Below, one piece after another: positions 16,843-46,419 of a DNA stretch of 64,000 nucleotides. The stretch comes from a virus. Its lineage: Duplodnaviria > Caudoviricetes. Where the stretch lies: IMG/VR virus record IMGVR_UViG_3300033068_001172, positions 4,935-68,934 of that record. One strand, 5' to 3'. The notes under the pieces are model-generated. The model searched no databases, was not told where the DNA came from, and saw only the letters and a program-made list of their open reading frames with translations. The translations under genes were made by a program, and so were the position numbers. Each line of letters begins with the position of its first letter. Position 1 is the stretch's first letter.

Positions 16843-18354
16843 TCAACCCCAGAAAGCCTCCTCGTCGAAGTCGGATGGCAGGTTCCCTTTTTCGTCGCTG
16901 CGGGCTTCCCACGATCCATAAGACATCACACCCTTGTCTTCCTCCTCGGGCTCGGATGGTGCGATCTTGATTGGTGGCCGCCCTTTGCGATCCCCTTCAA
17001 GCAGCATCAGGGCGGCGAGCAGCCGGTCTTCCGTGCTGCGTTTCTGCTCCAGCACCTCGGCCACCACGTCGTCCACGGTGCCTGGCACCATGAGGCGATA
17101 AACCATGACCACTTCTTTCTGCCCTCGGCGGTAGAGCCGTGCAATGGTCTGGCCATACTGCTCCTGTGAGTAGGTGAGAGACATCCACACCATGGTCTGT
17201 GACCCCATCTGAAGGTTCAGCCCGTGGCCCATGGACAGCGGGTGTCCGACCAGCATGGGGATCTGCCGTTTATTCCATTGTGAGATGAGCTGCGTCTGGA
17301 GTGCGGGGGATTTGGCGTCGGCGAAGAACCGGGCCTGCGGGAATTTGCGTCTGATGCGGTCCTGCTCGTGCTTGAAATCGCAGATCACCAGCAGCGGGTC
17401 TTTGGTCTGCTTCACCAGCTTGGCGAGAGCCTTCATCTTCTCGTCGTGGACATCGTGTGTGCGCTTTTCTGCGTCGTAGATGCAGCCCGAGGTGAACTGC
17501 AACAACTTGCGCACCAGCACTGCTGCATTGGCTGCGGTGATTTGTACCTCCTGCCGCAGCTCCAGGATTAGCTCCTTCTTGAATTCCTCGTACTGATCCA
17601 TGACGTGCGCTGGCAGCTTGACCTCCACATCTTCAACGTGGAAATCGGGCAGGTCCTTGAGCCAGTCGGAGGTTTTCATGGTGAGGGTGATGTCGGCGAT
17701 GCGGGCTTCGATGCGATCCTGCGCCCCGGCAATCGGTTCCCAATTGTACTGCTGATAGTCGGTGGCCGCGAAGTAGGTCTTCTTGAAATGGTCGAAGCTG
17801 CGACCGAGGCGATGACCATCGTCCAGCAGACGCACCTGTGCGAACAGATCGAGCAGGCTGTTACTCGCAGGAGTGCCTGTAAGATTGACCCGGTGCTTCA
17901 CGGCAGGCACCTCACGGCGCAGCAGGTTTATGCGCTTGCTGGCAGGGTTCTTGGCTTTGCTCGATTCATCGTACACCACCATCTGGTAAGGGACAGTGCC
18001 TCCGCGTTTCTCCACCAGCTTCACCAGATTGGGTATGGCCTCGTAGTTACAAAGGTAGATGTCCCCTTGACCAGCGATGAATGCACGGCGGCCAAGCGGA
18101 GTGCGCAGGTTAGCCACTTTCAGGTGATTAAACTGATCCCACTGTTGTACCTCCATGGGCCAAGTTAAATTGCAAACACGCAGCGGTGCGATGACCAGCA
18201 TGGCGTCCACTTCGAGGTCCTCCTTCATCTGGCAGAACGCGGCGAGCACGCTGCTGGACTTGCCCAAACCCATTCCCAAGATGAGGTAGGCGATGTCGTG
18301 CTTCAGCAGGAAGTCGATGGCGATCTTTTGTGGTGGTGCGGGGATGAACTTCAT
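16843..18354 (-). CDS. SNF2-family (SF2) helicase
   Basis: LGMGLGKS Walker A, VVYDESS, NLTGTPASNSLLDLFAQ, GHGLNLQ, QTIARLYRRGQ. C-terminus SDFDEEAFWG. Confidence 0.9.
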   Translation of the reverse strand: MKFIPAPPQKIAIDFLLKHDIAYLILGMGLGKSSSVLAAFCQMKEDLEVDAMLVIAPLRVCNLTWPMEVQQWDQFNHLKVANLRTPLGRRAFIAGQGDIYLCNYEAIPNLVKLVEKRGGTVPYQMVVYDESSKAKNPASKRINLLRREVPAVKHRVNLTGTPASNSLLDLFAQVRLLDDGHRLGRSFDHFKKTYFAATDYQQYNWEPIAGAQDRIEARIADITLTMKTSDWLKDLPDFHVEDVEVKLPAHVMDQYEEFKKELILELRQEVQITAANAAVLVRKLLQFTSGCIYDAEKRTHDVHDEKMKALAKLVKQTKDPLLVICDFKHEQDRIRRKFPQARFFADAKSPALQTQLISQWNKRQIPMLVGHPLSMGHGLNLQMGSQTMVWMSLTYSQEQYGQTIARLYRRGQKEVVMVYRLMVPGTVDDVVAEVLEQKRSTEDRLLAALMLLEGDRKGRPPIKIAPSEPEEEDKGVMSYGSWEARSDEKGNLPSDFDEEAFWG

Positions 18355-18959
18355 GAGTGCAAAAGCCGGGAGGTGACAATTTGTCCGCACCACGTAAAAG
18401 TGGTCGAGGTGGTGTAGCGCACCGGGATGGACTTGATCTTGAACTGCCAGCCGCCCTCGATGTATCCGGCACGCTGCGACCCGTGCATTGTCTTGCGGTC
18501 GAACGTCGCCGGGTGCTCAGCTTCAAACATCTTGAACTTCTTCACCGGCTTGTCTCCGATGGCGTCCATCACTCCACCCAAGGTGGTGATCAGCAGGGAT
18601 GGTGGAGTGCGCAGCATAGACTGCACCACGGCAGCACCAGACGCGGCTTTGATTGTGCAGTCGTGCAGCACGAACACGTAAAAGTAGTCACGGCCTACGG
18701 TGGCCAGTTCTTTGTCGGCCCGCCATTTATAGATCAGCGCCGAACGGCTGCGGCCAATGCTCTTGACCTCCACTGGCCTGCCATCCCACAGCGCATCAGC
18801 GCACATTTTCTTGCGGCCATCGACGTGCAGGCGCTCCATGCCCAGCGCCCGACAGGCAAACTCCTCCGCCACTTCACCGATGGCGTTGCGCACGGCGGCA
18901 GGTTTGAGCACGACACGGTCGTAGCTGCTCATCATGTCGAATAGGAAGGGCGTGCTCAA
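18351..18959 (-). CDS. Putative PD-(D/E)XK restriction-endonuclease-like protein
   Basis: EVAEEFAC...CADALWDGRPVEVKSIG (E...D...ExK spacing). Confidence 0.5.
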   Translation of the reverse strand: MSTPFLFDMMSSYDRVVLKPAAVRNAIGEVAEEFACRALGMERLHVDGRKKMCADALWDGRPVEVKSIGRSRSALIYKWRADKELATVGRDYFYVFVLHDCTIKAASGAAVVQSMLRTPPSLLITTLGGVMDAIGDKPVKKFKMFEAEHPATFDRKTMHGSQRAGYIEGGWQFKIKSIPVRYTTSTTFTWCGQIVTSRLLHS

Positions 18960-19390
18960 AATGGGTCAGGCTCCGGTGAATGGTTTCTAATCTTGGCGTC
19001 AACGTGTCGCTGCCGGCGCTCCGCGTTTTCCTTCTGCACGTTCTCGGTGCAGGTCAGCACCTGGATGTTGCCATCCACGTAGCCGAGGTGCGTCTCGATG
19101 CGGTCGATGTGCAGGCAGTGGCGCTCGCGCCCGCTTTCGTCCATGTAGCGGGTGGGCTCGATGACGGCCTTGAAGTGGGCCAGGGTCAGAGTGAACGCGA
19201 TCTTGCGCTTGCGTGCGCTGGCACGGAGATTGTCATAGGCCGCATGCACGGGGTTGTTGGCACGCCACAGTTCTTTGTGGTGGGTGCCGCAGAGCTGGGT
19301 GCTGTTCGGACGGTGCTTCAGATCACGCGGCGCTTTGCGGCAACGACGGACCGGGCAGCGACCGGGGATGGGTTTGTTGCGGAAGTTCAT
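18956..19390 (-). CDS. HNH-type endonuclease
   Basis: ARKRKIAFTLT...CLHIDRIETHLGYVDGNIQVLTCTENVQK. Confidence 0.75.
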   Translation of the reverse strand: MNFRNKPIPGRCPVRRCRKAPRDLKHRPNSTQLCGTHHKELWRANNPVHAAYDNLRASARKRKIAFTLTLAHFKAVIEPTRYMDESGRERHCLHIDRIETHLGYVDGNIQVLTCTENVQKENAERRQRHVDAKIRNHSPEPDPF

Positions 19391-20490
19391 CCCCAGAAGT
19401 CTTTCTCGTTGAACTCTTCAACACCACACCGGGCCTGTGCAATTTGGAAATACCCGGCGTCTTGTTCCATGCCGATGAACTCGAATCCTTCCAGTTTCGC
19501 CGCTTTGCCCGTGCTGCCGCTTCCCATCCATGGGTCGAGCACGGTGCCTCCGGGAGGTGTGACGAGGCGGCAAAGATACCGCATGAGCGCGACAGGCTTC
19601 AGAGTCGGATGGTTGTTCTTCGACGGGCTGAACGGGCGGTTATCGCGCTCTGGCACGGCTGCTCCATCGCCGGACCAATCTTTGTCGGGCAGATGTTCAA
19701 GCCCTTCATTCCTTTCCTTGGCGCTAACTTTGGCCGCGTAGAAGAACCGAGCAGCAGAACCTCCTGCATCCTCATGGCCTTGCGTGACGTGAGCTTTTTC
19801 ATGCCCCTTGGCCACAGACTTGAAAGCTCCGTTGTTTCGCGGCTTTGCGGAACTTGGGCCTGTTGTGGGAAACAGCGCCATCACTTCATCGCTGCCATCG
19901 TGAATCACATTGGCGGGCCAGCGTCCCGTCACCGGCCTTGCCTCGCCGCCTTTGCACAAACCTGAATTTTCTGCGTTCCACGTATCTCCTCCAGCAGCAG
20001 AACCGCCCCATCCAGTCACTTCATTGGAAGGCACTCTGCATAGGTCAATCTGCAACTCAGACTTCCCAGGTTTCCGCGCAAGCGTAATTGGCTCCAACGC
20101 TGGTTTAAGCACGGTCTTTACTTTCGGGAACCCGCTGCCGTAAATCCATGCCACCAAGTCGCGGATCTCGAACCCGGCGATGCGCAGGCCAAGCGCCATC
20201 AGGTCTTGTGTGCGTGTCCCGGCAAACGCGAGAACGTGTCCACCCGGCTTCAACACGCGGAGACATTCTTTCCATTGCGCAGGCTGCGGGACAAAGTTGT
20301 CCCACTCCTTGCCCATGAAGCCCTTTTTGCTTTTTACGTCATGGTGCCCGAAGTCCATCCAGTCCCGCAACATGGCGAGAGCGTCAGGCTCTTTGCCAAG
20401 GCCGTACGGCGGGTCGGTGACGATGGAGTCCACGCTGTTGTCGGGCAACGTGCGCAGCAGGTCGAGGTTGTTGCCGAGTAGAAGCCTCAT
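19387..20490 (-). CDS. DNA N6-adenine/N4-cytosine methyltransferase (beta arrangement)
   Basis: SIVTDPPYG near the N-terminus, NNHPTLKP, VLDPWMGSGSTG near the C-terminus. Ends EEFNEKDFWG. Confidence 0.9.
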   Translation of the reverse strand: MRLLLGNNLDLLRTLPDNSVDSIVTDPPYGLGKEPDALAMLRDWMDFGHHDVKSKKGFMGKEWDNFVPQPAQWKECLRVLKPGGHVLAFAGTRTQDLMALGLRIAGFEIRDLVAWIYGSGFPKVKTVLKPALEPITLARKPGKSELQIDLCRVPSNEVTGWGGSAAGGDTWNAENSGLCKGGEARPVTGRWPANVIHDGSDEVMALFPTTGPSSAKPRNNGAFKSVAKGHEKAHVTQGHEDAGGSAARFFYAAKVSAKERNEGLEHLPDKDWSGDGAAVPERDNRPFSPSKNNHPTLKPVALMRYLCRLVTPPGGTVLDPWMGSGSTGKAAKLEGFEFIGMEQDAGYFQIAQARCGVEEFNEKDFWG

Positions 20491-20828
20491 CTCCAGAAGC
20501 CCTCCCGTTCAATGTTCTTCTCGCCTGCACGGATCAGCCGGTCCACGAAAGCTTTGCCGCCCTCCACATTGTCACACCACTCGGCCACACAGCCCATGTC
20601 TCTCCGGTGTTGCATGCGCAGGTATTGAAGTTTGGTCGGCTCTTTCCCTCCGCGCTTCACTTCGAGAAAACCCACGGCCCCTCCGGGCGCGGTGACGAGG
20701 CGGTCGGAGACTCCGCGCTTGCCCGGACTGACAAACTTCTCGAAGTCGCATCCTTGCGCTTCGGCATACTCACGGATTTTCTTCTCGATTTCCTTTTCGA
20801 GGGGCGGGCGTTTAGACAGTTTCGACAT
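20487..20828 (-). CDS. VRR-NUC domain nuclease
   Basis: EKEIEKKI...KFVSPGKRGVSDRLV...FLEVKRGG..PTKLQ. Ends IEREGFWR. Confidence 0.85.
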   Translation of the reverse strand: MSKLSKRPPLEKEIEKKIREYAEAQGCDFEKFVSPGKRGVSDRLVTAPGGAVGFLEVKRGGKEPTKLQYLRMQHRRDMGCVAEWCDNVEGGKAFVDRLIRAGEKNIEREGFWR

Positions 20829-20880
20829 AGACGTAGTGGGGAGTCAAAAGGTTCGATGGGGATCTGACAGGCTCGACAGT

Positions 20881-21408
20881 TCATGACAAGTTAAGGCAGT
20901 GCCTCCGTGCAATGGCGATGAGGTGGTTGGCTTGGTAGATGGCGTCGTCGAGCGCATTATGTGCAGTTCCTACTGATGCCACTTGGACTTTGGGGAAGAG
21001 GTTCTTGATGGTGCGGTAGCAGCGGTTGCCGGTAAACTTCCACGGCACCCCAAGACCGGCCGCACGGTAGGCTTCTTCGAGCAGCACGTTGTCGAAATCA
21101 GATCCGTTGCCCCAGATGCGGATGATGTCGGTACCACAGAACTCGGTGAAAGATGACAGCACGTCGCGCAGCTTCTCGGTTCCCGAGAAGGCCGCTGTTT
21201 GGGCTTCGGAAGACTGGACGGCCCACCATGACCGCGTGTCCACGTCACTGGTGAGCCCAAGTGCGACGGAGTTCTCCTCACTGATGGCACGGTAAAATTT
21301 TTCCGTCACTCCAAGTTTGCTGAACTTCACGGCCCCGATGGTGAGTATAATGCTCCCCGGTTTTGTTCCGAGGGTTTCGAGGTCGATCATGATGTGCTGA
21401 ATATTCAT
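20881..21408 (-). CDS. DEDD-type 3'-5' exonuclease/exoribonuclease
   Basis: IMIDLETLG, WGNGSDFDNVLL, HNALDDA. Confidence 0.85.
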   Translation of the reverse strand: MNIQHIMIDLETLGTKPGSIILTIGAVKFSKLGVTEKFYRAISEENSVALGLTSDVDTRSWWAVQSSEAQTAAFSGTEKLRDVLSSFTEFCGTDIIRIWGNGSDFDNVLLEEAYRAAGLGVPWKFTGNRCYRTIKNLFPKVQVASVGTAHNALDDAIYQANHLIAIARRHCLNLS

Positions 21409-21410
21409 AG

Positions 21411-23849
21411 TTATTTCGTGTAGTAGGGTACAACGGCTCCGCTGGTGCTGACGGGTAAACCTTCACACCATGCAGGCACGTCTTCAAGGCAGTCTTGAAA
21501 ATCTCTCAAACTTTGATGCGGTCCATCGAATGCGGCCAACGCTTCATCGTGAATCAGCGAGTAAATGCGGTAGCCAGCAGCGGCTGCTTTCAAGGTGCCG
21601 TTGGCCATGATGTCAAAGGCAATCGCCTGGCATGCGTTTTCAGTGGCCTTCCCGCCGTATAGGCTGACGTGCCCCCACTTGGTGGACTTGGCACCGGTGG
21701 GGCCGGGGATCTGCCCATAGTAGGACAACGAGGACTTCACATACTGGCGTCCTGTCTTCTTGCTGGTGGCCTCCACCTCGGTGATCTTGGGATCACGATA
21801 GGCCAGCTTCCGCCCAGACGGCAGGCGCATGAACAGGTAGTTGGCACCGGCGGCGCGGGCGCTGAAGAAGGTGAGCTTGCCCACTTCCATCATCTGCCCC
21901 GGCAGTTTCACCGCTCGGATGGCCGCACGTTCGCAGGCATACCAGAAGTCAGCGATCATTGGGTTGGCTGCGCGCCACTTCTCCACGATGGGGGTCAACT
22001 CTTCTTCCGTGATGCCCATGTCAAGGGCACCAAACTTACGCAGGGCACCTTCTGCACCTTGGTAGCCGCAGTTGTGGACCAGCACACCGGACACAGTGAA
22101 ACGGTTGCGCGGTCCGCAGTTCATGATGTCATATACTTTGGTTGCCCCTTGCGCCAACGGGAAGCGTTTGCCCCACTTAGGGCGTCCGTCACCACGCAAC
22201 AGTCGCTCCCGGTGGGCTATGGCATCCCCGAACTCCCATTGCTCTCCCTTTGAGTTCCAAACCACATGGTCGGTAGTGGCAGTCAAACCTTGGTACGTGA
22301 CAACCGGCTTTTCTCCACGAGCGACGACGCCTTCATGGGAGTACCATCCTTCACCATCCCACACTTTCATGCCCAGCGTTACCTGCTCAATCGGCACCAG
22401 TCCGTGGTCCGTGGTGACAAGCTGCCCTTCGGCGATACACGCAAGTTCGGCCACCTTGCCCGTCTTGCGCATCGGGTGATGCTTGCCATGCTTGGTCTTG
22501 TAGTCCTCAAACTCCTGCATGGGTATGCCAAACATCTGGCTGGCTGACATCTCATAAATTTTCTTGTGCGTGCGGAACACTTCAAGCCGCCACTCCTCCC
22601 CCGCCAGCCACGCCAAAATCATCGCCTCGATGGCGGTGTAGTCGGCGGAGAGCATCGGCCCCTGCTTGTCCTGAATGAAGTGGCGGATGCAGTTGGCCAG
22701 AATGGAAAAGATGGGGCGGCCATACCACCATTCAAGTTCTTCCTTGCTCTCGCCGTTGCACAAGTCAGCATACATCTTGCCAGTTAGCGACTCGGCCCAC
22801 TCCTCGGGGGACTTGAAGTTCTGCGGCTGATGCAGCTTGCCACTCCAGCGCATCGTCGAAGCCCCGTGAAATTCCAGCGATCCACGGATGAAGTTGTCAT
22901 CGGGACCTACGCAATCCAGCATGGTGCGGATCTTCTTCACCGAGGCAAAGCCGATTTTCTGCATCAGCTCAATGGCGAGCCGGGCCTTCTCCTGACCGGG
23001 GACCACGGGCTTCTCGACCACCGCTTCCAAGGTCTCACCCTGTAAGTTGTCCAGCGTCAGGCCATTGGCGTTGATCCACGCCTTCACTTTGGCGTTCTGC
23101 GTGGGATTCAGGCCGGTCAGTTCACGAAACTGTGCAAAAGCAGGGCCGGTCTCCTCCTCAATCATGAGGTCAGCTTTGCGCAGGGCGTCGAGATTGAGGG
23201 GCATGCCGCGACAATTCATCTCGATGCTCGCAAGGAAAATGTCGAGCACCCAGCCACGCATCTCGAACGGTTTCAACGGCCCAAGCATTTCACTTTCCAC
23301 AAGTGTATCCTGCCGACAGTACTCCACGAACTGTTTGAAGGCCGTGGAGTCGTGACGGGGGTGAATGAACTCCTTGGTCTCCTCCTGTGGTATGCAGAAC
23401 TTCTTGATCAGACGGCTGCCTGCGGAGTCCTTCTGCTGGGGCATGCCAAGGGCTTCTGCGGCCTTTGCCAAGGACGCTGGGATGTTGGCACGGCGGGCAA
23501 GGACCATGGTGCAGCGCCAGCGTCTGCGGTTGGGCATCGGGAACCCGTAACGACGGCACAACACATGCTCGGTAATCGCTATCTCGAACAGCACATTGAA
23601 TGCGTTCAACGGTTCGTCAGACAGCATGGCCTCAGTGAGCAGTTCCTTTGCGCCAGGGTCACTGACCACATCGCCGAACACGTCGCAGCGCGTCTCGAAC
23701 TCGGGTGGAATCCACACCAGCACCGGGCCTTTGTCCTTGCGAATGGATACGCACAGCACCTCGGTGTCAGGGTCTCTGGCGTAGCGGAAAGTTCCTACCT
23801 CGGTCAGGTCGGCTTTGGCCCTTGATTCGTAGTCTATGGAAAATCCCAT
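21411..23849 (-). CDS. polA: Family A DNA polymerase with 3'-5' exonuclease, interrupted by an intein
   Basis: IDYES, YCRQD (exonuclease); motif A SADYTAIE; motif B RKTGKVAELA|CGYQG; motif C IHDE. Confidence 0.92.
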   Translation of the reverse strand: MGFSIDYESRAKADLTEVGTFRYARDPDTEVLCVSIRKDKGPVLVWIPPEFETRCDVFGDVVSDPGAKELLTEAMLSDEPLNAFNVLFEIAITEHVLCRRYGFPMPNRRRWRCTMVLARRANIPASLAKAAEALGMPQQKDSAGSRLIKKFCIPQEETKEFIHPRHDSTAFKQFVEYCRQDTLVESEMLGPLKPFEMRGWVLDIFLASIEMNCRGMPLNLDALRKADLMIEEETGPAFAQFRELTGLNPTQNAKVKAWINANGLTLDNLQGETLEAVVEKPVVPGQEKARLAIELMQKIGFASVKKIRTMLDCVGPDDNFIRGSLEFHGASTMRWSGKLHQPQNFKSPEEWAESLTGKMYADLCNGESKEELEWWYGRPIFSILANCIRHFIQDKQGPMLSADYTAIEAMILAWLAGEEWRLEVFRTHKKIYEMSASQMFGIPMQEFEDYKTKHGKHHPMRKTGKVAELACIAEGQLVTTDHGLVPIEQVTLGMKVWDGEGWYSHEGVVARGEKPVVTYQGLTATTDHVVWNSKGEQWEFGDAIAHRERLLRGDGRPKWGKRFPLAQGATKVYDIMNCGPRNRFTVSGVLVHNCGYQGAEGALRKFGALDMGITEEELTPIVEKWRAANPMIADFWYACERAAIRAVKLPGQMMEVGKLTFFSARAAGANYLFMRLPSGRKLAYRDPKITEVEATSKKTGRQYVKSSLSYYGQIPGPTGAKSTKWGHVSLYGGKATENACQAIAFDIMANGTLKAAAAGYRIYSLIHDEALAAFDGPHQSLRDFQDCLEDVPAWCEGLPVSTSGAVVPYYTK
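22071..22439 (-). mobile_element. Mini-intein (123 aa, no endonuclease) in polymerase motif B
   Basis: Starts CIAEGQLV, block B TATTDH, block F VYDI, ends VLVHN followed by Cys+1. Removing it restores ELACGYQG. Confidence 0.9.
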
Positions 23850-24148: not shown

Positions 24149-24880
24149 TTACATCATGTCGTCGATGGACAGTTCCTTCTTCGCTGCCGCAGGTTTGGCC
24201 GGGGCTGGCGTGCTCTCGGAGTCTTCGTCCAGATCGACACCTGCGAAGTCGGAGTCAACGTCCACGGTGCCTTTACCGAAAGGCTCGCCGTGTTTGTCAA
24301 AAATGACGGCGCGGAGTTCAGCATTCACACGTTTGCCGAAGTCATTGTCCTGCGCCCACAGACGGACACTGGCCACCACGTAGCAGCCTGCGTAAGGGTA
24401 GTGAGACTCTTCAGGGCGGATGTCCTGGCGGCTTTTGTCCACCACACGCGGAGCACCGTCGCTCTCCTTGCGGGAAGAACTGACGTACATGACGTGGTCG
24501 CCATAACCATCCTTGTCGGCCTTCTCCTCGCCATCGTGGAGACACGTTCCGAGCAGCACGACGCGCTCGGCTTTCGGGTTGGGCTGATCGACGACCTTTT
24601 CGGACTGGCCTTTGACGGTGACGATCTTGCCTTTCCACTGCTCACCGGCGATACGACCGATGAGGGCGCGGACGGCCTTGATCTGGTCGGCGGCGGTGTC
24701 CTTGTCGAGAATGATGCTGGCACCGTACTTGTCGCCGGAACCTCCGCCATCACCGTCGCCGGGCTTTTTTTTCACGCGCTTTTTCTGTTCCTCAAGCTGC
24801 TTGAGATTGAGGGTGGGATAGCTCAGGCGTCCGCGAAGGACGATGATGTTGGGGTCTTGCTGGGGTGCTTGGGTGCTCAT
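24149..24880 (-). CDS. ssb: Single-stranded DNA-binding protein (DUF2815 / gp2.5-like)
   Basis: GRLSYP..., KYGASIIL, YAGCYVVASVRLWAQDNDFGKRVNAELRAV, acidic tail. Confidence 0.85.
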   Translation of the reverse strand: MSTQAPQQDPNIIVLRGRLSYPTLNLKQLEEQKKRVKKKPGDGDGGGSGDKYGASIILDKDTAADQIKAVRALIGRIAGEQWKGKIVTVKGQSEKVVDQPNPKAERVVLLGTCLHDGEEKADKDGYGDHVMYVSSSRKESDGAPRVVDKSRQDIRPEESHYPYAGCYVVASVRLWAQDNDFGKRVNAELRAVIFDKHGEPFGKGTVDVDSDFAGVDLDEDSESTPAPAKPAAAKKELSIDDMM

Positions 24881-24963
24881 GGTATCAGTTATTTACTGGT
24901 TCTCGGTTTTGCGTTTTGGCCTCGCTGTGAGGTAGGTTGAAAATCCACACTATCGGCGGAGAG

Positions 24964-26208
24964 TCAACCCCAAAAATCTGTTTCTTCCCCGCCGAGATCC
25001 ACGCCGGCGAAGTCGCTGGTCATGTCGTTCTCGTAGGGCGCGCGTGGGTCGTTCTCGGGCACGGCGATGGGCTGGCCCGGCGGCTTCACGATGAGGCGTT
25101 GAAGCTCGATCATCTTCGGCCCCTTCATCTTGTCGGTGAGCTTCTCCGCCTGTGCAGGGGTGATCACGTCAGACGGCGGGAACACGTCGTCGAAAGGCAG
25201 TTTAAGACTGAGCAGCAGGTCGCCCGCTTTGATGGGATCGGTCCAGCGGCGGTGGCCGCCACGACTGAGCACCAGCTTGACGCCTGGCAGCTTCCTGCCG
25301 GAGAGCATGCGTCCGTTGACGAACTTCTCGATCTCTTTGACCCGGTCGGCCAGACGGTCGCGGGCGTTGAACATGCGCACAATCTCCTCGTCGCTGATGG
25401 TGGCCACAGGGCGCGGCTCTTTGTGCTCCAGCACAGTCTCGACCTCATCCTTGAAGTCTTCCAGCATGGCGTCGTTGTGCGCCACACAGATCGCAGCACC
25501 ACGGCACCACTTGCAAATCTTCGGGCCGCACTTGAACACACCGGGATCGCCGCGCAGGATGGACTGAGCTTTCGGGGTGATCCGCTCATCAGTGAACGTC
25601 TTCAACTCCCCCCACGTGGTGGTCCAGGTGACGTGATCCACCTCCAGCCGGGGTTGGAAGATGGTCATGGTGACGGGGAAGCTGTCGGCTGGTGCGGCCA
25701 TCCAGAACCCGTCGAACATGTCCTCAATCAGGCTGCGGGCGTAGATCGCCATTTGCAGGTTCTCCTCGGAGTCCACCGGGTCGTAGCCGTACTTGTAATC
25801 GACGAGGTGGACGCCGGTCTTGGTGATGGCGTGAAAGTCCACGGTGCCGCACTCGCTGGGCAGGTAATACAGCGGAGCGCGATACTCGGCACCCCAGCGG
25901 ATCACGTCACGTTTTGGCCCCATGATCTCATGGCAGAACTCCGCGTAGGCTTTGCCGTGGCGCAGCTTCTCCTTGGCCTCCTTGGTCTTCTCCAAGATCC
26001 ACCGTGGCAGTTTGCGGTCGAGCAGCAGATACTCGGCGACCGTGTGGGCCTTGGTGCCCTCCATGGCTGCTGGTCCAGGCTTGTCCGGCGGGAGGCGGTG
26101 CTCGTTGGCCTTGACGAAGGTGAGCGCCGCCGTGCATTCGGTCCATGTGTGGGCCTTGGACGGGGAGAGGCGGGAGTGCTCGGGAGCGGGAGTGGGTGTG
26201 GGGGTCAT
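24964..26208 (-). CDS. DUF2800-family Cas4-like PD-(D/E)XK exonuclease
   Basis: HSRLSPSKAHTWTEC, EGTKAH, GTVDF...VDYKYG, NLQMAIYA, CKWCRGAAIC. Ends GGEETDFWG. Start moved to the ATG at 26208. Confidence 0.85.
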   Translation of the reverse strand: MTPTPTPAPEHSRLSPSKAHTWTECTAALTFVKANEHRLPPDKPGPAAMEGTKAHTVAEYLLLDRKLPRWILEKTKEAKEKLRHGKAYAEFCHEIMGPKRDVIRWGAEYRAPLYYLPSECGTVDFHAITKTGVHLVDYKYGYDPVDSEENLQMAIYARSLIEDMFDGFWMAAPADSFPVTMTIFQPRLEVDHVTWTTTWGELKTFTDERITPKAQSILRGDPGVFKCGPKICKWCRGAAICVAHNDAMLEDFKDEVETVLEHKEPRPVATISDEEIVRMFNARDRLADRVKEIEKFVNGRMLSGRKLPGVKLVLSRGGHRRWTDPIKAGDLLLSLKLPFDDVFPPSDVITPAQAEKLTDKMKGPKMIELQRLIVKPPGQPIAVPENDPRAPYENDMTSDFAGVDLGGEETDFWG

Positions 26209-26432: not shown

Positions 26433-26445
26433 AATCTTGTACCCC

Positions 26446-26476
26446 AAAAGCCGTCACCCCTCGCGGAGTGACGGCT
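26446..26476 (-). terminator. Intrinsic terminator-like hairpin
   Basis: AGCCGTCAC-loop-GTGACGGCT followed by T residues on the minus strand. Confidence 0.55.
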
Positions 26477-26494
26477 GATCTTCGAGGAAGGTTT

Positions 26495-26911
26495 TTACAT
26501 CTCCACTTCGGCCTCGGGATCAGTGTCGGTGGCACCGATCTTGACGGCGGCGGCATGGATGTCACCACGGTGCTCGGCGGCGATCTCGGCCATGGTGTTG
26601 TAGCCGAACTTCTTCACGAAGTAGGCTTTCAGCTTGGCCTTGCCTTCGTTGGGCAAGGTCATCACCGTGGCCTTCAGACGGGCTTCGCTGATCTCGGGAG
26701 CAGCCGGTTCGTCGGCAGCTTCCTCGACCGGGCTGACTGGAGGAGCGGCAGCCTTGGCGGCTTTGGCAGCTTTCGCGGGTTTCTCGGCAGCAGGTGCCGG
26801 AGAGTCAGCGGCAGGAGCAGCGCAGCCACCCTTGGAGGCGGTGTTGCGGTCGATGGCGTCGATCAGGGGTTTGATGAGGGTTTCAAAGATGGACTGGAGC
26901 ATGTCTTTCAT
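26495..26911 (-). CDS. Ala/Pro/Lys-rich hypothetical protein typical of DUF2800-SSB-polymerase modules
   Basis: ATG at 26911 (MKDMLQSIF) in an A/C-rich context. The frame stays open upstream to a GTG at 27166. Confidence 0.65.
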   Translation of the reverse strand: MKDMLQSIFETLIKPLIDAIDRNTASKGGCAAPAADSPAPAAEKPAKAAKAAKAAAPPVSPVEEAADEPAAPEISEARLKATVMTLPNEGKAKLKAYFVKKFGYNTMAEIAAEHRGDIHAAAVKIGATDTDPEAEVEM

Positions 26912-27162
26912 AGGTGTTGGTGTTTGGGTGTGTTGTTTTTCTACCATCACCGGACTGCCGGTGACGGATTGAAAGTCGAAAGGGAGGGCGCGGATGATGC
27001 AGTTCTCGGCGTGGTTGTAAAGGCGGAAGAACTCGGGCTGTGCGTGGCAAAGAACAAGCAGGCGGCGCTGAGATTTAAGACCTTTGGCGTAGGCGCGGCT
27101 GTCGTCGGAGCGGTCGAAGTACCAGTCATGCTGCTGGAGCAGGGCGATGAAGTCGGCGGGAG

Positions 27163-27402
27163 TCACGACACCTGAAGATTGACACGTTGGACAGCAGCAC
27201 ACCAGCTTGGTGCCACCACAGCAAAGCGACGACCGGCAGCCAGTGCGTCAGGTTCAACCACGAACACCCGATTCGCTGGAGCAGCTTCTCCCGGCGACGG
27301 CGCTGCCCGTGGTGCGTTCGGCGGGTTGAAGGCGTAGCGGGGCCAGGAACCTCCGCGTTTGCGGATGTAGGCTTTGACGGGATCGAGGACGGGGTTGTGC
27401 AT
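27163..27402 (-). CDS. Hypothetical protein
   Basis: MHNPVLDPVK..., 79 aa. Confidence 0.45.
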   Translation of the reverse strand: MHNPVLDPVKAYIRKRGGSWPRYAFNPPNAPRAAPSPGEAAPANRVFVVEPDALAAGRRFAVVAPSWCAAVQRVNLQVS

Positions 27403-31981: not shown

Positions 31982-32017
31982 GGTGTTTCGCCATAGTGAA
32001 ACTGCACCGGATGTCCG

Positions 32018-32641
32018 TCAACCCCAAAAATCGGCGTCCTCGTCTTTTTCCGCGAGCAGGGCTGGCACGGCGGCTGCGGGTGCCAGGAACTCGGGGACAA
32101 CAGCTTCCTTCAGTTTAAAGAAACGCCGTGCTCCCGGCTCCATCTTGATCGCGTCATGATCGGCGCTGGTGATGAGAAATTGATCGTACTTTGCAGGCTT
32201 ATCGTACATACCCGACAACAGGCCCATGTCCTCCACGCCCCAGCGGGTGCACCCGTCGTGCTGAGCCAGCCGGTTCTGCAATGTCGCGATGTCACCTTTG
32301 GCCTTCCTCGGGAAATACGCATACATCACGTACCGCGCTGCATGCACCTTGTCCGCCAGGATCACATCGACCAGCGCCACCGAGTGGGTGCCTGTCACCT
32401 CATCGACGAACTTGACGGCATGCTCCAGCGGCACGAACAGGTGCAGCACCGGGTCGTCCATGAGAACGTCCTCGGCGTGGTCGGTGAGCGTGCCAAGCTG
32501 TGTGACCTTGTGCGCGGCTGCGGCTTCGCCCAGATAGACAGAAAAGCCGTTGGACTCGTGCAGCAGGTGCAGGGTTGCGCGGGGTGCTGCGGCGCGCATG
32601 GCATCGAGCTTGGACTTGAAGAGGGAGTGGAAGAAGTTCAT
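32018..32641 (-). CDS. Hypothetical protein ending in acidic-FWG
   Basis: About 207 aa; C-terminus EKDEDADFWG. Confidence 0.7.
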   Translation of the reverse strand: MNFFHSLFKSKLDAMRAAAPRATLHLLHESNGFSVYLGEAAAAHKVTQLGTLTDHAEDVLMDDPVLHLFVPLEHAVKFVDEVTGTHSVALVDVILADKVHAARYVMYAYFPRKAKGDIATLQNRLAQHDGCTRWGVEDMGLLSGMYDKPAKYDQFLITSADHDAIKMEPGARRFFKLKEAVVPEFLAPAAAVPALLAEKDEDADFWG

Positions 32642-33317: not shown

Positions 33318-33638
33318 TTATCCCCAGAAATCTGGATCTTCGGCAACGGCGAGGCCGTTCTTTATCTTCTCGCGCAGCAGTCGCATGCGTTGCCCCATCC
33401 ACTGCGGATGGGCCTTCTGGCGTTTGGCATTCCATGCCGCGCTCTTGGTCAGGTCGATCAGCTCGTCACGGATCTTGGGCTTGCTGCCGCTGCCCGGCTT
33501 GCGCGGGGCTTTGGGCTTGCCCATCTCCAGCCGGTGGCGCAGCACGGTGTTGGGGTGGCAGCCGACGATTTCGGCGATCTCGTCGTTGCGCATCTTGGAC
33601 CAGGCGATGGTGCGTGGGTATTTTACTTTGTCGGACAT
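33318..33638 (-). CDS. HTH protein of a locally expanded family, ending in acidic-FWG
   Basis: IAWSKMRNDEIAEIVGCHPNTVLRHR; C-terminus VAEDPDFWG. Confidence 0.7.
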   Translation of the reverse strand: MSDKVKYPRTIAWSKMRNDEIAEIVGCHPNTVLRHRLEMGKPKAPRKPGSGSKPKIRDELIDLTKSAAWNAKRQKAHPQWMGQRMRLLREKIKNGLAVAEDPDFWG

Positions 33639-40213: not shown

Positions 40214-40241
40214 ATTATACGTCAATGCCGTATAAAGGCAA
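40214..40241 (-). promoter_or_regulatory. Sigma70-like promoter
   Basis: TTGCCT-16 nt-TATAAT. Confidence 0.6.
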
Positions 40242-40707: not shown

Positions 40708-40711
40708 GAGG

Positions 40712-40972: not shown

Positions 40973-41004
40973 ATCAGTTTATGGTATGCGGTTTGTCTTT
41001 TGCG

Positions 41005-41051
41005 GAAAGGTGCCGGTTTGTGGATTGCCGGGATCCGTTTGGGGTTTTAGC
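41005..41051. repeat. 47-bp exact direct repeat, copy 1
   Basis: GAAAGGTGCCGGTTTGTGGATTGCCGGGATCCGTTTGGGGTTTTAGC, also at 41654-41700. Confidence 0.9.
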
Positions 41052-41610: not shown

Positions 41611-41653
41611 ATTATTAAGGTTTGCGTGTTTTGTCTTGAGCGTCTGCCGCTCT

Positions 41654-41700
41654 GAAAGGTGCCGGTTTGTGGATTGCCGGGATCCGTTTGGGGTTTTAGC
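41654..41700. repeat. 47-bp exact direct repeat, copy 2
   Basis: Identical to 41005-41051. Confidence 0.9.
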
Positions 41701-41956
41701 AGCGATTAAAGCGCGCACCCATTTTTGGGCCGGTTGCCACTTCAAGGTCAGGATACATATCCGTCACGTCTTCATGTGTGCCGCGCCAGACAAGCAGGCT
41801 TGCCTGGCACTCATCACTGCCGACTCGTGAATGCGTATCCTGCCAGCGCTCCAAGGCGTTGCGCAGTTGACGCTTGCTGGTGGCGTGCTGCACGTCAGTA
41901 CCTTCAGGACTGCTAAAAGAGCCGCTTTCGCTCATTGTCTGATATGTGTAGTTCAT
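41696..41956 (-). CDS. Hypothetical early protein (first gene of the leftward operon)
   Basis: 86 aa with ATG start. Confidence 0.6.
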   Translation of the reverse strand: MNYTYQTMSESGSFSSPEGTDVQHATSKRQLRNALERWQDTHSRVGSDECQASLLVWRGTHEDVTDMYPDLEVATGPKMGARFNRC

Positions 41957-42246
41957 AAGTGTGTGAGTTGGTTAACGTTTGAACCTTAACAGTGCTTTCG
42001 TTGATTCGTCAAATACATATTTTATATATTTCTTCTTTGGGGTTGAGGGGTGGAGGGTTGAAACTCACAAGAGTTTATAATTATAAGCATTTACAAGAGA
42101 GTGAGTCTTGTAAAAGTACTGTACTACTCTGTCATAAGGAAAATGTTTTTCGAGTAAAAGGTATATAATACCACAGAATATGGTGCTAAAGCTAAGAGCA
42201 GTTGCCTCTTTTTACTGGACAGAATTAGAAGGGATGAATTTAACTC

Positions 42247-42275
42247 TTGCAAGAGGTGTATAAAAGGTGCATAAT
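42247..42275 (+). promoter_or_regulatory. Sigma70-like promoter overlapped by a palindrome
   Basis: TTGCAA-17 nt-CATAAT; the -35 sits in the 12-bp palindrome CTCTTGCAAGAG. Confidence 0.55.
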
Positions 42276-42284
42276 ACTTACGCT

Positions 42285-43010
42285 ATGAAAATTATACGCC
42301 TTACCATATATGATCCCACTCACATTCGCCTCAGCAAAGCTCTTTTGCCTGCGGGGATGAATCTAACCCGCTGGATTAATCAAGCCATGTGCGAAAAGCT
42401 TGATCGCGATTGCCCCTCAACCATTGGTTTGATTGCCTCCAGCGCGGAGAAACTGGAGCCGGAGCGACAGCCTATCGACCCGCAGGCCATCCTGGCGGAA
42501 ATGAAGAAACAGGATGCGGAGAAAAACCGGCCCGACTTTGGGCCGTACGTGGCTCGATACAAGGACAGCCATCCCAGCGACTACGCTATCGCTTTGGCGA
42601 ATCACAAGCGAAATGGCAAAACCGGCGATTCTTTGGGGATTGAAGGAGAGCTAGAAAAATGGATGAAGCAAGATTCACGGCTGGCGTTAAGTGAGGAAGA
42701 GAAGCGCGAAATTATGGCGGAGCATGGCAGGAAGCAGGCGGAGCAGGTGCAAGCGGCTGCCGCCGTAGATCCTGATGCCATCCCCGACCATGTGAAGGGG
42801 CATCCCCTGCTCTATCAGGAGTGGCGCGACAAACGTGACGCGGAGCTTGCAGGCATCAAGGTGCCGGAGGTTTCGCCCACTGGTGAGTTGTCGGACACTG
42901 CGGAGTACCTGGAACTGTGCAAGCCGGTAAAGACTGCCAAGCCGGCAGAGGATGAGGAGGATTCATTTTGGGGAGGGTACGACAAGATCAAGAGTGCAGC
43001 GCGCAAATAA
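42285..43010 (+). CDS. Hypothetical protein, possible ribbon-helix-helix N-terminus
   Basis: MKIIRLTIYD...MNLTRWINQAMCEKL; near-terminal EDEEDSFWGG. Confidence 0.65.
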   Translation: MKIIRLTIYDPTHIRLSKALLPAGMNLTRWINQAMCEKLDRDCPSTIGLIASSAEKLEPERQPIDPQAILAEMKKQDAEKNRPDFGPYVARYKDSHPSDYAIALANHKRNGKTGDSLGIEGELEKWMKQDSRLALSEEEKREIMAEHGRKQAEQVQAAAAVDPDAIPDHVKGHPLLYQEWRDKRDAELAGIKVPEVSPTGELSDTAEYLELCKPVKTAKPAEDEEDSFWGGYDKIKSAARK

Positions 43011-43031
43011 TGGCACGCTGGCGAGTGATTA

Positions 43032-43062
43032 GGGGCTGCACGTTAACCCGTGCAGCCCCTTT
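43032..43062 (+). terminator. Intrinsic terminator
   Basis: GGGGCTGCAC-8 nt-GTGCAGCCCC-TTT. Confidence 0.7.
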
Positions 43063-43268
43063 CGTGTATAAAATATATACATTAGGGGGTTGCCACTGAG
43101 TACCCAGCTCACGGCATCAAGGTCAAAGTCGGCAATGGTTCTTTCCGCGATCGCGTGGAACTGAATCAAAAGCTACGCTCTCAACTCTTCCCCACCATGA
43201 CAACGGGGCAGCGTAAAGGCTACTGGCTCGTTACGTTCGTATTCTAGCTCCCGGCCTGCCAGCCGATT

Positions 43269-43303
43269 AAAGCCGCTGCTCTCACAAGGGGCGGCGGCTT
43301 TTT
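43269..43303. terminator. Bidirectional terminator-like hairpin
   Basis: AAAGCCGCTGCTCT-CACA-AGGGGCGGCGGCTTTTT. Confidence 0.55.
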
Positions 43304-43351
43304 CGTGCCTGCGTGAATCGCGGCATGGCAGCCATGCACTCAAACGACAAG

Positions 43352-43381
43352 TTGACACTTTGGGGCTGGTGCGGGTATTCT
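43352..43381 (+). promoter_or_regulatory. Possible sigma70-like promoter
   Basis: TTGACA-18 nt-TATTCT, 11 nt before the ATG at 43393. Confidence 0.4.
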
Positions 43382-43392
43382 GCCGTCACATT

Positions 43393-43938
43393 ATGGCCTA
43401 TCCACAAGCAACTGAGCACTGGCAAGAAATCCAGAACCTAGCCGAGCAAGGCGTAGATGTGTCCACACTGAGCGAGAAGTTTGGGGTGAAGGAGAAAACT
43501 ATATATGATAGATCGGCTCGTGAAGACTGGCAAACCCCTCTCAGGGTTAAGGCGAAACTAAAGACTTTGTCGGACAAAGCCCGAATTGACCGCTCTAACC
43601 CGCTTTTCGGGGGCAGGACGCCTTCCGAATTTTCCGATTCTGTCTTGCTTGAAACCTGGGAAACCCGTGCCGCAGACCTGCGTAACCTGTCATACTCTGT
43701 TGCAGTTGAGGCCATTAAGTCTGCCAAGGGTCAAATCGTGCTAGAGTCTGCCGGCGATCTCAAACACGCCGTACACGTTGCCAGGCAAGCCACTGGCCTC
43801 CTGGACACTGACGCGCCTCAAATCCAGCTCTCGCTGTTCGGGAATGGGGACATTTGCGGCCCCGCGATTATGGAGAATGACAGTCAACCAGTGATAGAGT
43901 TACAGCAGGATCAAGAGCTTGATGGGTTTTGGGGGTAA
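43393..43938 (+). CDS. Putative terminase small subunit
   Basis: N-terminal HTH (HWQEIQNLAEQGVDVSTLSEKFGVKEKTIYDRSAREDW) followed by helices. Ends DQELDGFWG. Confidence 0.6.
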   Translation: MAYPQATEHWQEIQNLAEQGVDVSTLSEKFGVKEKTIYDRSAREDWQTPLRVKAKLKTLSDKARIDRSNPLFGGRTPSEFSDSVLLETWETRAADLRNLSYSVAVEAIKSAKGQIVLESAGDLKHAVHVARQATGLLDTDAPQIQLSLFGNGDICGPAIMENDSQPVIELQQDQELDGFWG

Positions 43939-44444
43939 TTGTGGTGGCTCGGAGAATGTGACGGCGCGACAAGGGAAAAAAGGTACGTACTACTGAGCTA
44001 GTTGGTAGTTTCATGGTATGCCGTGCCATGAGAGTGGATCAGTCAGGCCGGCAAGCTGATGCTGGTGCCGGGTGGTGGCGTGCTGCACTGGTGCTGAGGC
44101 GACGTGCACACGTGCTGCGGGGTGACGGCAGCAGGGACGGCGGCGCGGGTGCCGTCCGAGGGGTTGACGCGATCCTCCCTCACGCTCTCTAGGGGCGTAC
44201 GTGAAATCACCTCAAAAATTATACTCTACTTCTGAATATCAACTGTTAAGTTTCAAACCTTAACTCCCAGACGCCGGCATGGGTGTATCAGCCACTGGGA
44301 CCCTTCGACCTCGACCCGTGCGCCGGGAAGGCTGCGGAAATCGCAAAGACGAACCACCGGCGCAGCCCCACTCCCCAAAAATTTCACACCACTCCGGAAA
44401 CTCGACTGTTGACATTCACGTAACACCGTGACAAGAGTGGATCT

Positions 44445-44789
44445 ATGGACACTCCACTCGAACCAGCACCAAAACTATATCGCTACCACAGCTACCGGGT
44501 GGCCACAGGTATGAGCTACGACGGTGAGTACGCTGGCAGCCAAGCAGCGGCGTATTTGCAGGAGTTCAAAGTGATTAAGACCACCAAGCAGGGCCGGCGT
44601 ATTGACATAGGTGGAAGCTCCTTTCACCCAGACACAAGGTGGGTGTCCAACACCTCTCGCAAACGCTACGCTCACCCCACCAAAGCAGAAGCTTGGACAT
44701 CCTTCCTTGCACGGAAACGTCGGCAGGTGTCAATCCTGAAAGCTCAACTGAGAAACGCAGAAGAAGCCCTCACTCTGAAACAGCCATGA
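44445..44789 (+). CDS. Hypothetical protein
   Basis: 114 aa. Confidence 0.65.
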   Translation: MDTPLEPAPKLYRYHSYRVATGMSYDGEYAGSQAAAYLQEFKVIKTTKQGRRIDIGGSSFHPDTRWVSNTSRKRYAHPTKAEAWTSFLARKRRQVSILKAQLRNAEEALTLKQP

Positions 44790-45262
44790 ACGACGCCACC
44801 CCACCCGCGCCACGCCGCCACCCCGTCACCGACCAGCCCCGCCGCAACCGCACCAGCTTCAAGGATCTGACGGGCCGCACGTTTGGCCGCTGGTCTGTCC
44901 TTGCCGAGGTGCCCAAGACGCGCCCAGGCCAGACTCTGTGGCAATGCCGGTGCTCCTGCGGCACGGAGAAGACCGTGCTCTACGGCAGCCTCATGGACGG
45001 AGACAGCAGGTCGTGCGGCTGCCTGAAGGTCGAGAAGCTCGCCGCCGTGACCAAGCCGCTGCATGAGAGGCACAGCCGCAGCAACCCGACATGGCGGAGC
45101 TGGAGCAACCGCCGTCACCAGATGCCGCTCGAATGGCTCAGCAACTTCGACCAGTTTCTCAAGGACATGGGGCCGCGTCCCGAGGGTGCCCGGCTGCACT
45201 CACGCGATGGCCGCCGCTGGGACAAGGAGAACTGCGAGTGGAGGGTCACGGCAAAACCATGA
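44786..45262 (+). CDS. HNH homing-endonuclease-like protein, possibly degenerate
   Basis: DLTGRTFGRW...CRCSCG...SRSCGC...FDQFLKDMGPRP...ENCEW. The expected DRID..GY segment is not intact. Confidence 0.7.
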   Translation: MNDATPPAPRRHPVTDQPRRNRTSFKDLTGRTFGRWSVLAEVPKTRPGQTLWQCRCSCGTEKTVLYGSLMDGDSRSCGCLKVEKLAAVTKPLHERHSRSNPTWRSWSNRRHQMPLEWLSNFDQFLKDMGPRPEGARLHSRDGRRWDKENCEWRVTAKP

Positions 45263-46419
45263 GCACTGACTTCGACGCAGACGCCTTCTGGGGCACACCA
45301 CCAACTTCATGCACTACTACAACGAATACGACAAAAACGCGGCAGCGTGGCTCAGGGAACTCATCGCACGGAAACTCATCCCCGCGGGAGAAGTCGATGA
45401 GCGGAGCATCGTTGACGTGCGCCCCGGCGACCTCAAAGGGTTCACCCAGTGCCACTTCTTCGCAGGAATCGGCGGATGGTCCCGCGCTCTCCAGCTTGCA
45501 GGATGGCCCGAGGACAAACCGGTCTGGACCATGTCATGCCCGTGCCAGCCATTTTCCACAGCAGGCCAAGGGGCAGGAACCGCAGACGAAAGACACCTCT
45601 GGCCTGTCGCCTTTGAACTCGTCCGCCAGTGCAGACCTCCAGTCGTGTTCGGAGAACAAGTCGCCTCTGCTCTCGTCGTTGGCTCGGTCAAACGACCTGT
45701 CCGCAAGGATGGGCAAAATCCTCCAGAGGAGGCTCCTGTCTGGCTCGATGGAGTATTCGTTGACCTGGAGTCAGCGCACTACGCCTGCGGGGCGGCTGTT
45801 GTGGCAGCAGCGAGCGTCGGCGCACCGCACATCCGGCAGCGGTTGTACTGGGTGGCCTACGACCAAGGCCAAGGACGGGAGGGAGTGGAGTCCCAACGCA
45901 CCGCCGGGAAGCTCATCGGGGCACGGGTTGGGAGCGGTGGCGCAGATGGCGGGATGGGCGACACCAGATACCTGCGCGGGAGGGACAGGGCCGAGCCAGA
46001 CGGACAGAAATTCGATGAGGCTCCAAGACCAAGTATTGGGATGGACAACTCCGAATGCCCGCGACTGGAAAGACATGGCTTCCCCGGAAGTACTGATCCG
46101 GGCGATGGATGGGGCCAAAGGGTCTGCCAATCTCCCAAGACAAGCGGCAACAATTTCTGGTCCAGATACGAACTCGTCCCCTGCCGGGACGGCAAAGCGA
46201 GGCGCATTGAACCCGGCTCTCAGCCGCTGGTTGATGGGCTACCCCGTGGAATGGTGCCAGTCGGCTCTCCAAGCGTTCAGGACGCTCAAGCAACAGGGGA
46301 AGCGCGGGTCGCCCGGCTCAAGGGATATGGAAACGCCATCGTCCCGCAAGTCGCCGCGCAGTTCATCCTCGCCGCCGAAGAAGCTTGGCACGACAGAACT
46401 GGAGAACTTCTGGGAGTAA
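45259..46419 (+). CDS. Second (beta-like) subunit of a split C5 methyltransferase, overprinted on the catalytic subunit
   Basis: 386 aa open frame; repeats GWPTTKAKD / GWATPDT / GWTTPNARDWK and LNPALSRWLMGYPVEW (motif IX-like); ATGA-coupled start; begins MSTDFDADAFWG and ends ELENFWE. Confidence 0.7.
   Translation: MSTDFDADAFWGTPPTSCTTTTNTTKTRQRGSGNSSHGNSSPREKSMSGASLTCAPATSKGSPSATSSQESADGPALSSLQDGPRTNRSGPCHARASHFPQQAKGQEPQTKDTSGLSPLNSSASADLQSCSENKSPLLSSLARSNDLSARMGKILQRRLLSGSMEYSLTWSQRTTPAGRLLWQQRASAHRTSGSGCTGWPTTKAKDGREWSPNAPPGSSSGHGLGAVAQMAGWATPDTCAGGTGPSQTDRNSMRLQDQVLGWTTPNARDWKDMASPEVLIRAMDGAKGSANLPRQAATISGPDTNSSPAGTAKRGALNPALSRWLMGYPVEWCQSALQAFRTLKQQGKRGSPGSRDMETPSSRKSPRSSSSPPKKLGTTELENFWE

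Follow-up and report, generated by a model that had tools for sequence, protein, structure and literature searches.

Acidic FWG ends in a phage proteome

The stretch of DNA analysed here (the window; 64,000 nucleotides) comprises bases 4935-68934 of the 68,934-bp IMG/VR record IMGVR_UViG_3300033068_001172, a Caudoviricetes phage genome that CheckV rates as complete, and our subject is a short acidic peptide ending in Phe-Trp-Gly (FWG) that is found at the ends of several of its proteins. An earlier note on this DNA had listed six unrelated proteins with such an end. A regular-expression scan of the window for TTY-TGG-GGN-stop found exactly these six, at 16843, 19387, 24964, 32018 and 33318 on the minus strand and at 43927 on the plus strand, each closing a long open reading frame (106-503 amino acids). 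The two near variants that the note had added, FWR in a VRR-NUC nuclease and FWE in the second frame of a C5 methyltransferase gene, are also real, and further copies of the motif lie at internal, near-terminal and N-terminal positions. The proteins bearing the motif are:

8248..9540, minus strand: p430, with an internal acidic FWG (8539-8547) in a disordered linker; weak feature and structure matches to GT2
16843..18354, minus strand: SNF2-family helicase (Pfam SNF2-rel_dom, phrog_62), tail DFDEEAFWG-stop (16843-16872)
19387..20490, minus strand: N6/N4 DNA methyltransferase (PF01555, E = 2e-34), ending EFNEKDFWG-stop (19387-19416)
20487..20828, minus strand: VRR-NUC-type endonuclease (phrog_93), ending GFWR-stop (20487-20498)
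24964..26208, minus strand: DUF2800 / PD-(D/E)XK exonuclease (PF10926, E = 2e-53), ending EETDFWG-stop
32018..32641, minus strand: p207, no Pfam or PHROG family match, ending DEDADFWG-stop
33318..33638, minus strand: p106, small helix-turn-helix (HTH)-like protein (alignment A5), ending EDPDFWG-stop
42387..43010, plus strand: p207b, with an acidic FWG (42966-42974) 12 residues before the C-terminus
43393..43938, plus strand: p181, N-terminal HTH-like region, no Pfam or PHROG match, ending ELDGFWG-stop
45259..46419, plus strand: frame B over the C5 methyltransferase gene (phrog_1008), ending ELENFWE-stop (46396-46419)

The N-terminus of frame B is MSTDFDADAFWG (45259-45294), which includes the acidic string DFDADAFWG. 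The label TerS that p181 had been given is without family support and was not confirmed, there being no match in Pfam or PHROG and no similarity to the TerS of Achromobacter phage phiAxp-2. p430 is possibly a GT-A-like glycosyltransferase, an assignment that we treat as a lead only.

A codon model called ∼89 genes in the window, and proteome statistics were calculated on 89 proteins. The amino acid composition of this proteome predicts 0.0038 FWG termini, the check that the note had proposed, against the six observed (P(≥6) = 3e-18); the tripeptide FWG occurs nine times proteome-wide against 0.86 expected. The bodies of the carriers, once trimmed of their tails, showed no significant mutual similarity by BLAST, and the proteins bearing FWG make up about one tenth of the proteins of the phage.

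Selection on the peptide and on the DNA

We compared the motif at the DNA and peptide levels in the window's own phage (G000) and its relatives among the IMG/VR genomes and loci (G001-G006, L005, L012 and L014-L016). Across seven genomes of the clade, 41 of the 56 TTYTGGGG sites encode an in-frame FWG, 29 of them at a terminus, and only 3/56 fall in the two other frames of the same strand. Off-frame and intergenic copies in the window are at chance level. Phe and Trp are invariant in 41/41 distinct tail instances, with TTT and TTC both used for Phe (18/23), while the acidic positions mix Asp and Glu with varied codons. In the extended consensus FWG is preceded by D (-4), E (-5 and -6), [ND] (-7) and F (-8). 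This in-frame bias, together with the synonymous Phe codons and the variable disordered linker described below, indicates that the FWG motif is selected as a peptide, as the note had proposed, and does not behave like a DNA element repeated regardless of frame.

The note had also cited the variety of Gly codons as a sign of peptide-level selection. That part of the argument does not stand, for of 34 distinct instances, 32 have GGA or GGT for the terminal Gly, codons whose genome share is 35% (P = 9e-13); the part that rested on synonymous Phe codons does. GGATGA supplies the ATG of the next gene, an overlap seen where the stop of the N6/N4 methyltransferase meets the gene that follows it, and GGTTGAC supplies a -35 box. 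The stop codons of three minus-strand tail genes lie inside TTGAC boxes (16841-16846, 24962-24967 and 32016-32021), each with a -10-like hexamer 17 nt downstream, in an arrangement conserved in relatives; at the helicase gene the promoter-like site is as follows.

16818..16846, minus strand: promoter-like site whose -35 box, TTGACG, overlaps the Gly and stop codons of the helicase

By sequence these TTGAC sites resemble internal promoters that coincide exactly with the ends of genes. The overlap with the stop codon, which the note had raised as a caveat, is therefore genuine, but it does not overturn selection on the peptide: tails with a TAA stop and no adjacent gene still read FWG, and the internal copies, which are free of start and promoter signals, use GGC for Gly. 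The DNA-level signals therefore explain no more than which stop codon is used and which base fills the third position of the last Gly codon.

Two other origins for individual copies were considered and dropped. Recent gene conversion as the source of the similarity between tails was rejected, given the different codons of the tails within one genome. An in-frame GDGFWG past the stop codon of p223 (26442-26449), considered as a readthrough tail, proved to be the U-tract of a terminator-like hairpin:

26450-26494, minus strand: terminator-like hairpin separating p223 from the next gene; CCGTCAC...GTGACGG, then CTTTT

Anatomy of the tail

The helicase gives the clearest picture of how the tail is attached. 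Its core ends at about residue 455 and is followed in the orthologues by a variable linker of 8-70 amino acids, after which F[ND]EExFWG is kept. In an AlphaFold2 model the core is good, residues 456-503 have a predicted local distance difference test (pLDDT) score below 50, and a five-residue helix (498-502) lies over the motif. In 1,896 cultured-phage records the helicase homologues align no further than residue ∼450-458, and the tail is therefore a clade-specific extension. The 22 residues before the tip contain 18-32% Asp and Glu, compared with 10-15% in the protein bodies. Since FWG is also found internally, at an N-terminus, and 2 to 12 residues from the end (e.g. FWGSN and FWGAAV), a free C-terminal carboxylate is not essential.

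Tails in relatives of the phage

The search of related contigs and the orthologue comparison that the note had suggested showed that the tail is kept on orthologues and is gained or lost between neighbouring genes. The helicase retrieved thirteen IMG/VR loci; in each of these, and in each of the five whole records to which they belong, 2-7 proteins have an FWx terminus. Orthologues in at least 10 related genomes keep the tail; the relatives with FWx termini are those listed above, and in the G006/L005 branch the last residue is relaxed to Asp, Glu or Ala. The orthologue table shows the tail retained on the helicase, the VRR-NUC protein, p106, p207, p181 and the N6 methyltransferase. The VRR-NUC orthologues end in FWG, FWK, FWE or FWA; those of p181 end in DADFWG; one p106 orthologue ends in FWGSN and another has no tail; the p207b orthologue in G002/G003 ends in DFWGAAV; and the internal acidic FWG of p430 is kept in G001 and G002. 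p207 is confined to the FWG clade, where its orthologues keep the tail, and is absent from more distant lineages. The exonuclease has the tail only in G000, L005 and G006; elsewhere it is borne by the next gene, which encodes a PAPS-reductase-like protein. In the relatives the tail is also found on an HNH endonuclease, on a phrog_799 methyltransferase and on a methyltransferase fusion. Many DNA-acting proteins thus have one short linear motif in common, as the note had supposed, and their orthologues keep it. No structural-module protein carries an FWG tail.

Use of the motif in several copies is restricted to this clade. Among all 2.9 million IMG/VR contigs, [DE]DFWG-TGA was found in 88 stretches, and those outside the clade were chance off-frame matches or single proteins. 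A scan for EEDFWG-TGA in 185,579 prokaryote species genomes gave 11 matches, all off-frame, with no prophage or cellular user.

More distant relatives, 32-40% identical, were retrieved with a primase alignment (A1). They have the same module, i.e. primase, exonuclease, ssDNA-binding protein (SSB, where ssDNA is single-stranded DNA), DNA polymerase, VRR-NUC and SNF2 helicase, and each lineage has a tail of its own on several non-homologous proteins:

NLDDY, distant lineage: on SSB, VRR-NUC and a small protein
TLDDF, TMEDF and STDDY, further distant lineages
[DE][DE][IF]C, distant lineage: on primase, exonuclease, VRR-NUC and helicase
IDLL, TDDL and TDEL, distant lineages: on primase, exonuclease and SSB
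EELL and EGLL, distant lineages
[DE][DE]E[LM], cultured phiAxp-2: on SSB, primase, annotated TerS, helicase and a small protein

We quantified this by shuffling genome labels within protein families. The identity of the last three residues across families within a genome was 0.66, compared with 0.33 after permutation, and 0/20000 permutations reached the observed value. The tail tips therefore switch in concert across the proteins of a genome, as a shared, co-evolving reader would predict. A common receptor, as the note had suggested, is the best reading of tail types that change together between lineages.

Other tail classes and candidate receptors

The replication and DNA-processing genes of the phage form a minus-strand block at ∼8.2-42 kb. 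Besides the SNF2 helicase, the N6 methyltransferase, the VRR-NUC protein and the DUF2800 exonuclease, and a separate exonuclease and a probable large terminase described below, the block includes:

18956..19390, minus strand: endonuclease VII-like/HNH protein (phrog_3322, phrog_1035), with a third tail type, acidic + DPF-stop
21411..23849, minus strand: family A DNA polymerase with an intein (phrog_17)
24149..24880, minus strand: gp2.5/Enc34-type ssDNA-binding/annealing protein, the SSB (phrog_112, PF10991), ending LSIDDMM-stop
26495..27166, minus strand: p223, two small domains and a long Ala/Pro/Lys linker, ending EAEVEM-stop
28054-30651, minus strand: D5-type primase-helicase (phrog_1156)

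The genome thus combines a gp2.5-like SSB with a primase-helicase and a family A polymerase. A matching module has been described for Enc34 and the 'Nazgul-like' phages (PMC5686142), and it is also annotated in the cultured phage phiAxp-2.

The note had taken the SSB to be without a tail of the relevant kind and had proposed an inverted hub/client polarity. This idea is not supported, as the SSB has its own acidic tail of the IDDM type. Its orthologues end in IDDM, or in DDEL in G006, an ancestral acidic class that is common to p223. In sister lineages the SSB shares its tail with the exonuclease, primase and VRR-NUC protein, and it is therefore better seen as a fellow client, as in T7. The endonuclease VII-like protein ends in [DE]xDPF in eight orthologues. 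In bacteria, hydrophobic pockets with basic residues on their flanks read the acidic SSB tail and its terminal Phe, and judging by sequence the acidic-DPF end may mimic the bacterial SSB tip (DDDIPF) to reach SSB-binding host proteins. The FWG clade therefore seems to use two or more classes of tail at once, which speaks against an inverted polarity and is a hint that there may be more than a single receptor site.

Of the core replication proteins, the polymerase alone lacks an acidic tail in every lineage; its C-termini follow xP[FY]Y[KT]K across all lineages (VVPYYTK in this phage). A search with the polymerase retrieved >7800 homologues. Because it is the sole core protein that is never tailed, and by analogy with T7, we name the family A polymerase as the best guess for the receptor, a guess that we think would be wrong more often than right. 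Another core phage protein or a host protein is possible in its place. A sliding clamp was sought with PF00712, PF09116 and PF00705 (DnaN, gp45 and PCNA) and gave no genome match at E ≤ 1, a search that a too-divergent clamp could escape. p223, considered as a clamp-sized hub, was set aside, being mostly disordered linker and bearing an acidic tail of its own. p672, considered as a hub for its 85% conservation, was dropped in favour of a large terminase (see below).

Comparison with known systems

The principle of a disordered acidic segment with an aromatic end on non-homologous replication proteins is that of phage T7, where gp2.5 ends in DGDF and gp4 in DTDF and no other listed T7 protein has such a tail. 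The gp4 tails dock on basic patches of the gp5 polymerase (PMC12593628), and the gp2.5 tail is implicated in binding the polymerase and the primase-helicase (PMC5686142; PMC10359462). T7 likewise encodes an SSB of the gp2.5 kind together with a primase-helicase and a polymerase of family A. The two phages differ in the number and kind of clients (two in T7, about ten here, mostly modification and repair enzymes and HTH proteins), in the tip (a single Phe in T7, FWG here), and in the occurrence of FWG at internal and N-terminal positions. In addition, the SSB here has a second tail type and the primase none, and sharing of one tail by the SSB and the primase, as in T7, is seen in the sister lineages and phiAxp-2 instead. 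Because the tail of the SSB and p223 differs and the primase lacks one, the FWG set is not simply the T7 arrangement.

The tails of T4 gp43, gp55 and gp33 that bind the gp45 clamp are similar in form, i.e. acidic/hydrophobic C-terminal peptides on unrelated proteins that come close to DFWG-stop (gp43 ends in SLDFLFG-stop and gp55 in SLDFLYEAND-stop), and extra residues past the motif are tolerated in both cases. Unlike T4, this genome has no detectable clamp or clamp-loader family, and its polymerase, the counterpart of the key T4 client, is without a tail. The bacterial SSB C-terminus (DDDIPF) likewise combines an acidic tail with a terminal Phe, a form that the endonuclease VII-like protein shares, but there one SSB serves many readers, whereas here about ten non-SSB carriers would presumably serve one reader.

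The note had called the tails an undescribed system. This overstates their novelty, the principle being in print for the T7 gp2.5 and gp4 tails on gp5 and the T4 tails on gp45. The novelty lies in how many clients there are, in the FWG tip and in the lineage-specific versions that co-evolve; the system is not categorically new. Our literature search for an FWG C-terminal motif in phages found none; the acidic-tail literature that it returned concerned T7, T4 and SSB only.

A docking motif and its alternatives

The motif is real, selected as a peptide, disordered, kept in orthologues and co-varying across proteins between lineages. From this we infer binding to a common receptor, the likely identity of that receptor and a purpose at the replication fork. 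Judged from the sequences, acidic-FWG is probably a short linear docking motif that tethers DNA-acting proteins to one shared receptor. The plug at the end of a flexible acidic linker would be small and hydrophobic: Phe-Trp, in most cases with a Gly behind it and often with a second Phe five residues upstream. It would tether its clients to one receptor surface of the replication and DNA-processing machinery. These clients would be the helicase, three nucleases, several methyltransferases, the PAPS-reductase-like enzyme, the possible glycosyltransferase and the small HTH proteins. The tail would then be this clade's version of the T7 gp2.5/gp4 acidic tails, enlarged from two clients to about ten, and its purpose would be to hold DNA-modifying and repair enzymes at the fork.

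Several observations weigh against docking to a single receptor. The bias of the terminal Gly codon shows that the DNA level has shaped part of the motif, and the internal, N-terminal and FWG+2 to +12 copies are unlike strict C-terminal recognition. Within the FWG clade the SSB and p223 carry the different, DDM-type acidic tail and the primase has no acidic tail. A comparison of gene content with four distant complete relatives revealed no clade-specific, non-client replication protein that could be the hub. Finally, we know of no reason for HTH proteins or methyltransferases to bind a polymerase.

The lack of a hub of this kind would be explained if the receptor were a host protein, such as the sliding clamp or another replisome or nucleoid protein, with tail types that track host lineages. 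The resemblance to the clamp-binding tails of gp43 and gp55, in a phage without a recognisable clamp, fits this, and methyltransferases, flap or branch nucleases and an SNF2 remodeller are the kind of proteins generally found in a PCNA-type interactome. However, FWG is unlike the bacterial clamp-binding consensus QL[SD]LF, and only off-frame matches were found in the prokaryote genomes, and we consider a host receptor unlikely. [quoted passage not shown] All of the carriers are DNA-binding proteins, the tail of Enc34 ORF6 sits in the OB groove of a neighbouring molecule and its removal alters DNA selectivity (PMC5686142), and the T7 gp2.5 tail competes with ssDNA according to the title of a cited reference. 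Unrelated DNA-binding folds would not need an identical, invariant Phe-Trp tip, though, and genome-wide switching of the tip is hard to explain without one shared reader; the AlphaFold2 model, which is weak evidence on this point, leaves the helicase tail undocked on its own core. We regard action in cis as quite unlikely.

It is more improbable again that the tail is a degron or timing tag through which a protease or adaptor would remove the proteins of DNA metabolism as a group. Degradation can be signalled by C-terminal tags, and the carriers lie in the early/middle gene block, but known bacterial C-terminal degrons are non-polar and this sequence is strongly acidic, FWG copies are also internal and N-terminal, and the sister-lineage tails are on SSB and primase, for which the T7 precedent is docking. 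The note had also mentioned sorting or capsid targeting. Some phages package methyltransferase or helicase proteins (the Dar system of P1), and one tail is on a protein in a TerS-like position; since no structural protein carries the tail, and nucleases and HTH regulators are unlikely cargo, a sorting signal into the capsid or a replication compartment has very little to recommend it, and the module's T7-type homology favours docking at the replisome. An equally slim chance attaches to FWG being the incidental translation of some DNA- or RNA-level element, whether a -35 box, an overlap of start and stop codons or a signal for coupling. This possibility is already largely refuted: the Gly codon bias, the GGATGA starts and the GGTTGAC boxes with their -10-like hexamers speak for it, but these signals constrain only the last one or two codons, Phe codons and the acidic run vary synonymously, and the TAA-stop tails without an adjacent gene and the GGC internal copies keep FWG. 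Moreover, off-frame and intergenic copies are at chance (one being the terminator U-tract), and the two frames of a single gene each bear a separate tail.

Docking through a shared reader could be part of something wider. A tentative extension, about which we are doubtful, is a co-evolving 'tail code' in phages with the gp2.5 module, in which each lineage would use its own tip to direct as much as a tenth of its proteins to a single pocket. In the present clade the code would be split, with FWG on enzymes and regulators and DDM on the SSB and p223, giving two orthogonal receptor sites in one replisome. Such a code would cover clients in DNA replication, repair, modification and possibly packaging, and would explain how phages hold DNA-modifying enzymes at the fork. 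If the docking reading holds, one tiny peptide would organise most of the DNA metabolism of the phage through a single tethering site, a layout opposite to that of PCNA or bacterial SSB in cells, and the T7 two-tail interaction would be extended into a general, evolvable addressing system whose lineage-specific tails could serve as orthogonal docking tags. The tail is also of practical use, as it marks true protein C-termini in unannotated phage genomes and predicts the functional membership of p207, p106, p181 and p430. The cultured relative phiAxp-2 makes the docking idea testable at the bench.

Overlapping methyltransferase frames and other genes

The remaining features of the replication block are an exonuclease gene and the gene for p672:

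14230-16248, minus strand: p672, 672 amino acids, probable large terminase by language-model neighbours and position
20881-21408, minus strand: exonuclease gene (175 amino acids) beside the polymerase (phrog_255)

A near-identity DNA search of the cultured-phage collection gave no match to the window, and p672 has no sequence match in Pfam, PHROG or PDB. Yet no other protein of the clade is better conserved (77-89% identity). Clusters with Terminase_6N (16% of members) are found among its language-model neighbours, and the TerL of phiAxp-2 occupies the equivalent position, after the helicase. By these criteria p672 is probably a divergent large terminase inside the replication block. The phrog_255 exonuclease gene is found only in G000 and L012, the same two genomes that have an intein-sized insertion in the polymerase.

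In the C5 methyltransferase gene (45259-46427, plus strand) two overlapping frames are open along the whole length. Frame A contains motifs I-VIII and a GNAIVP box, and frame B contains GWPTP repeats and an LNPxFxxWLMGxPxxW box. Both frames are kept as protein between G000 and G002, with 65% and 45% identity in two segments of frame A and 31% over 331 amino acids (E = 6e-30) in frame B. In relatives of the G002 type (G002 28162-28965, i.e. L023:8162-8965) each frame has its own separate FNExxFWG-stop. With the tail as a marker, this argues for the translation of both methyltransferase frames, which may form a split enzyme like the two-subunit methyltransferase M.AquI.

Among the other enzymes, p532 (9839-11437, minus strand), like p430, is conserved, has no family match and looks glycosyltransferase-like, its C-terminal 336 amino acids being kept across relatives. 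These two proteins, the several methyltransferases and the PAPS-reductase-like gene of the relatives together suggest that the DNA of this phage is heavily modified.

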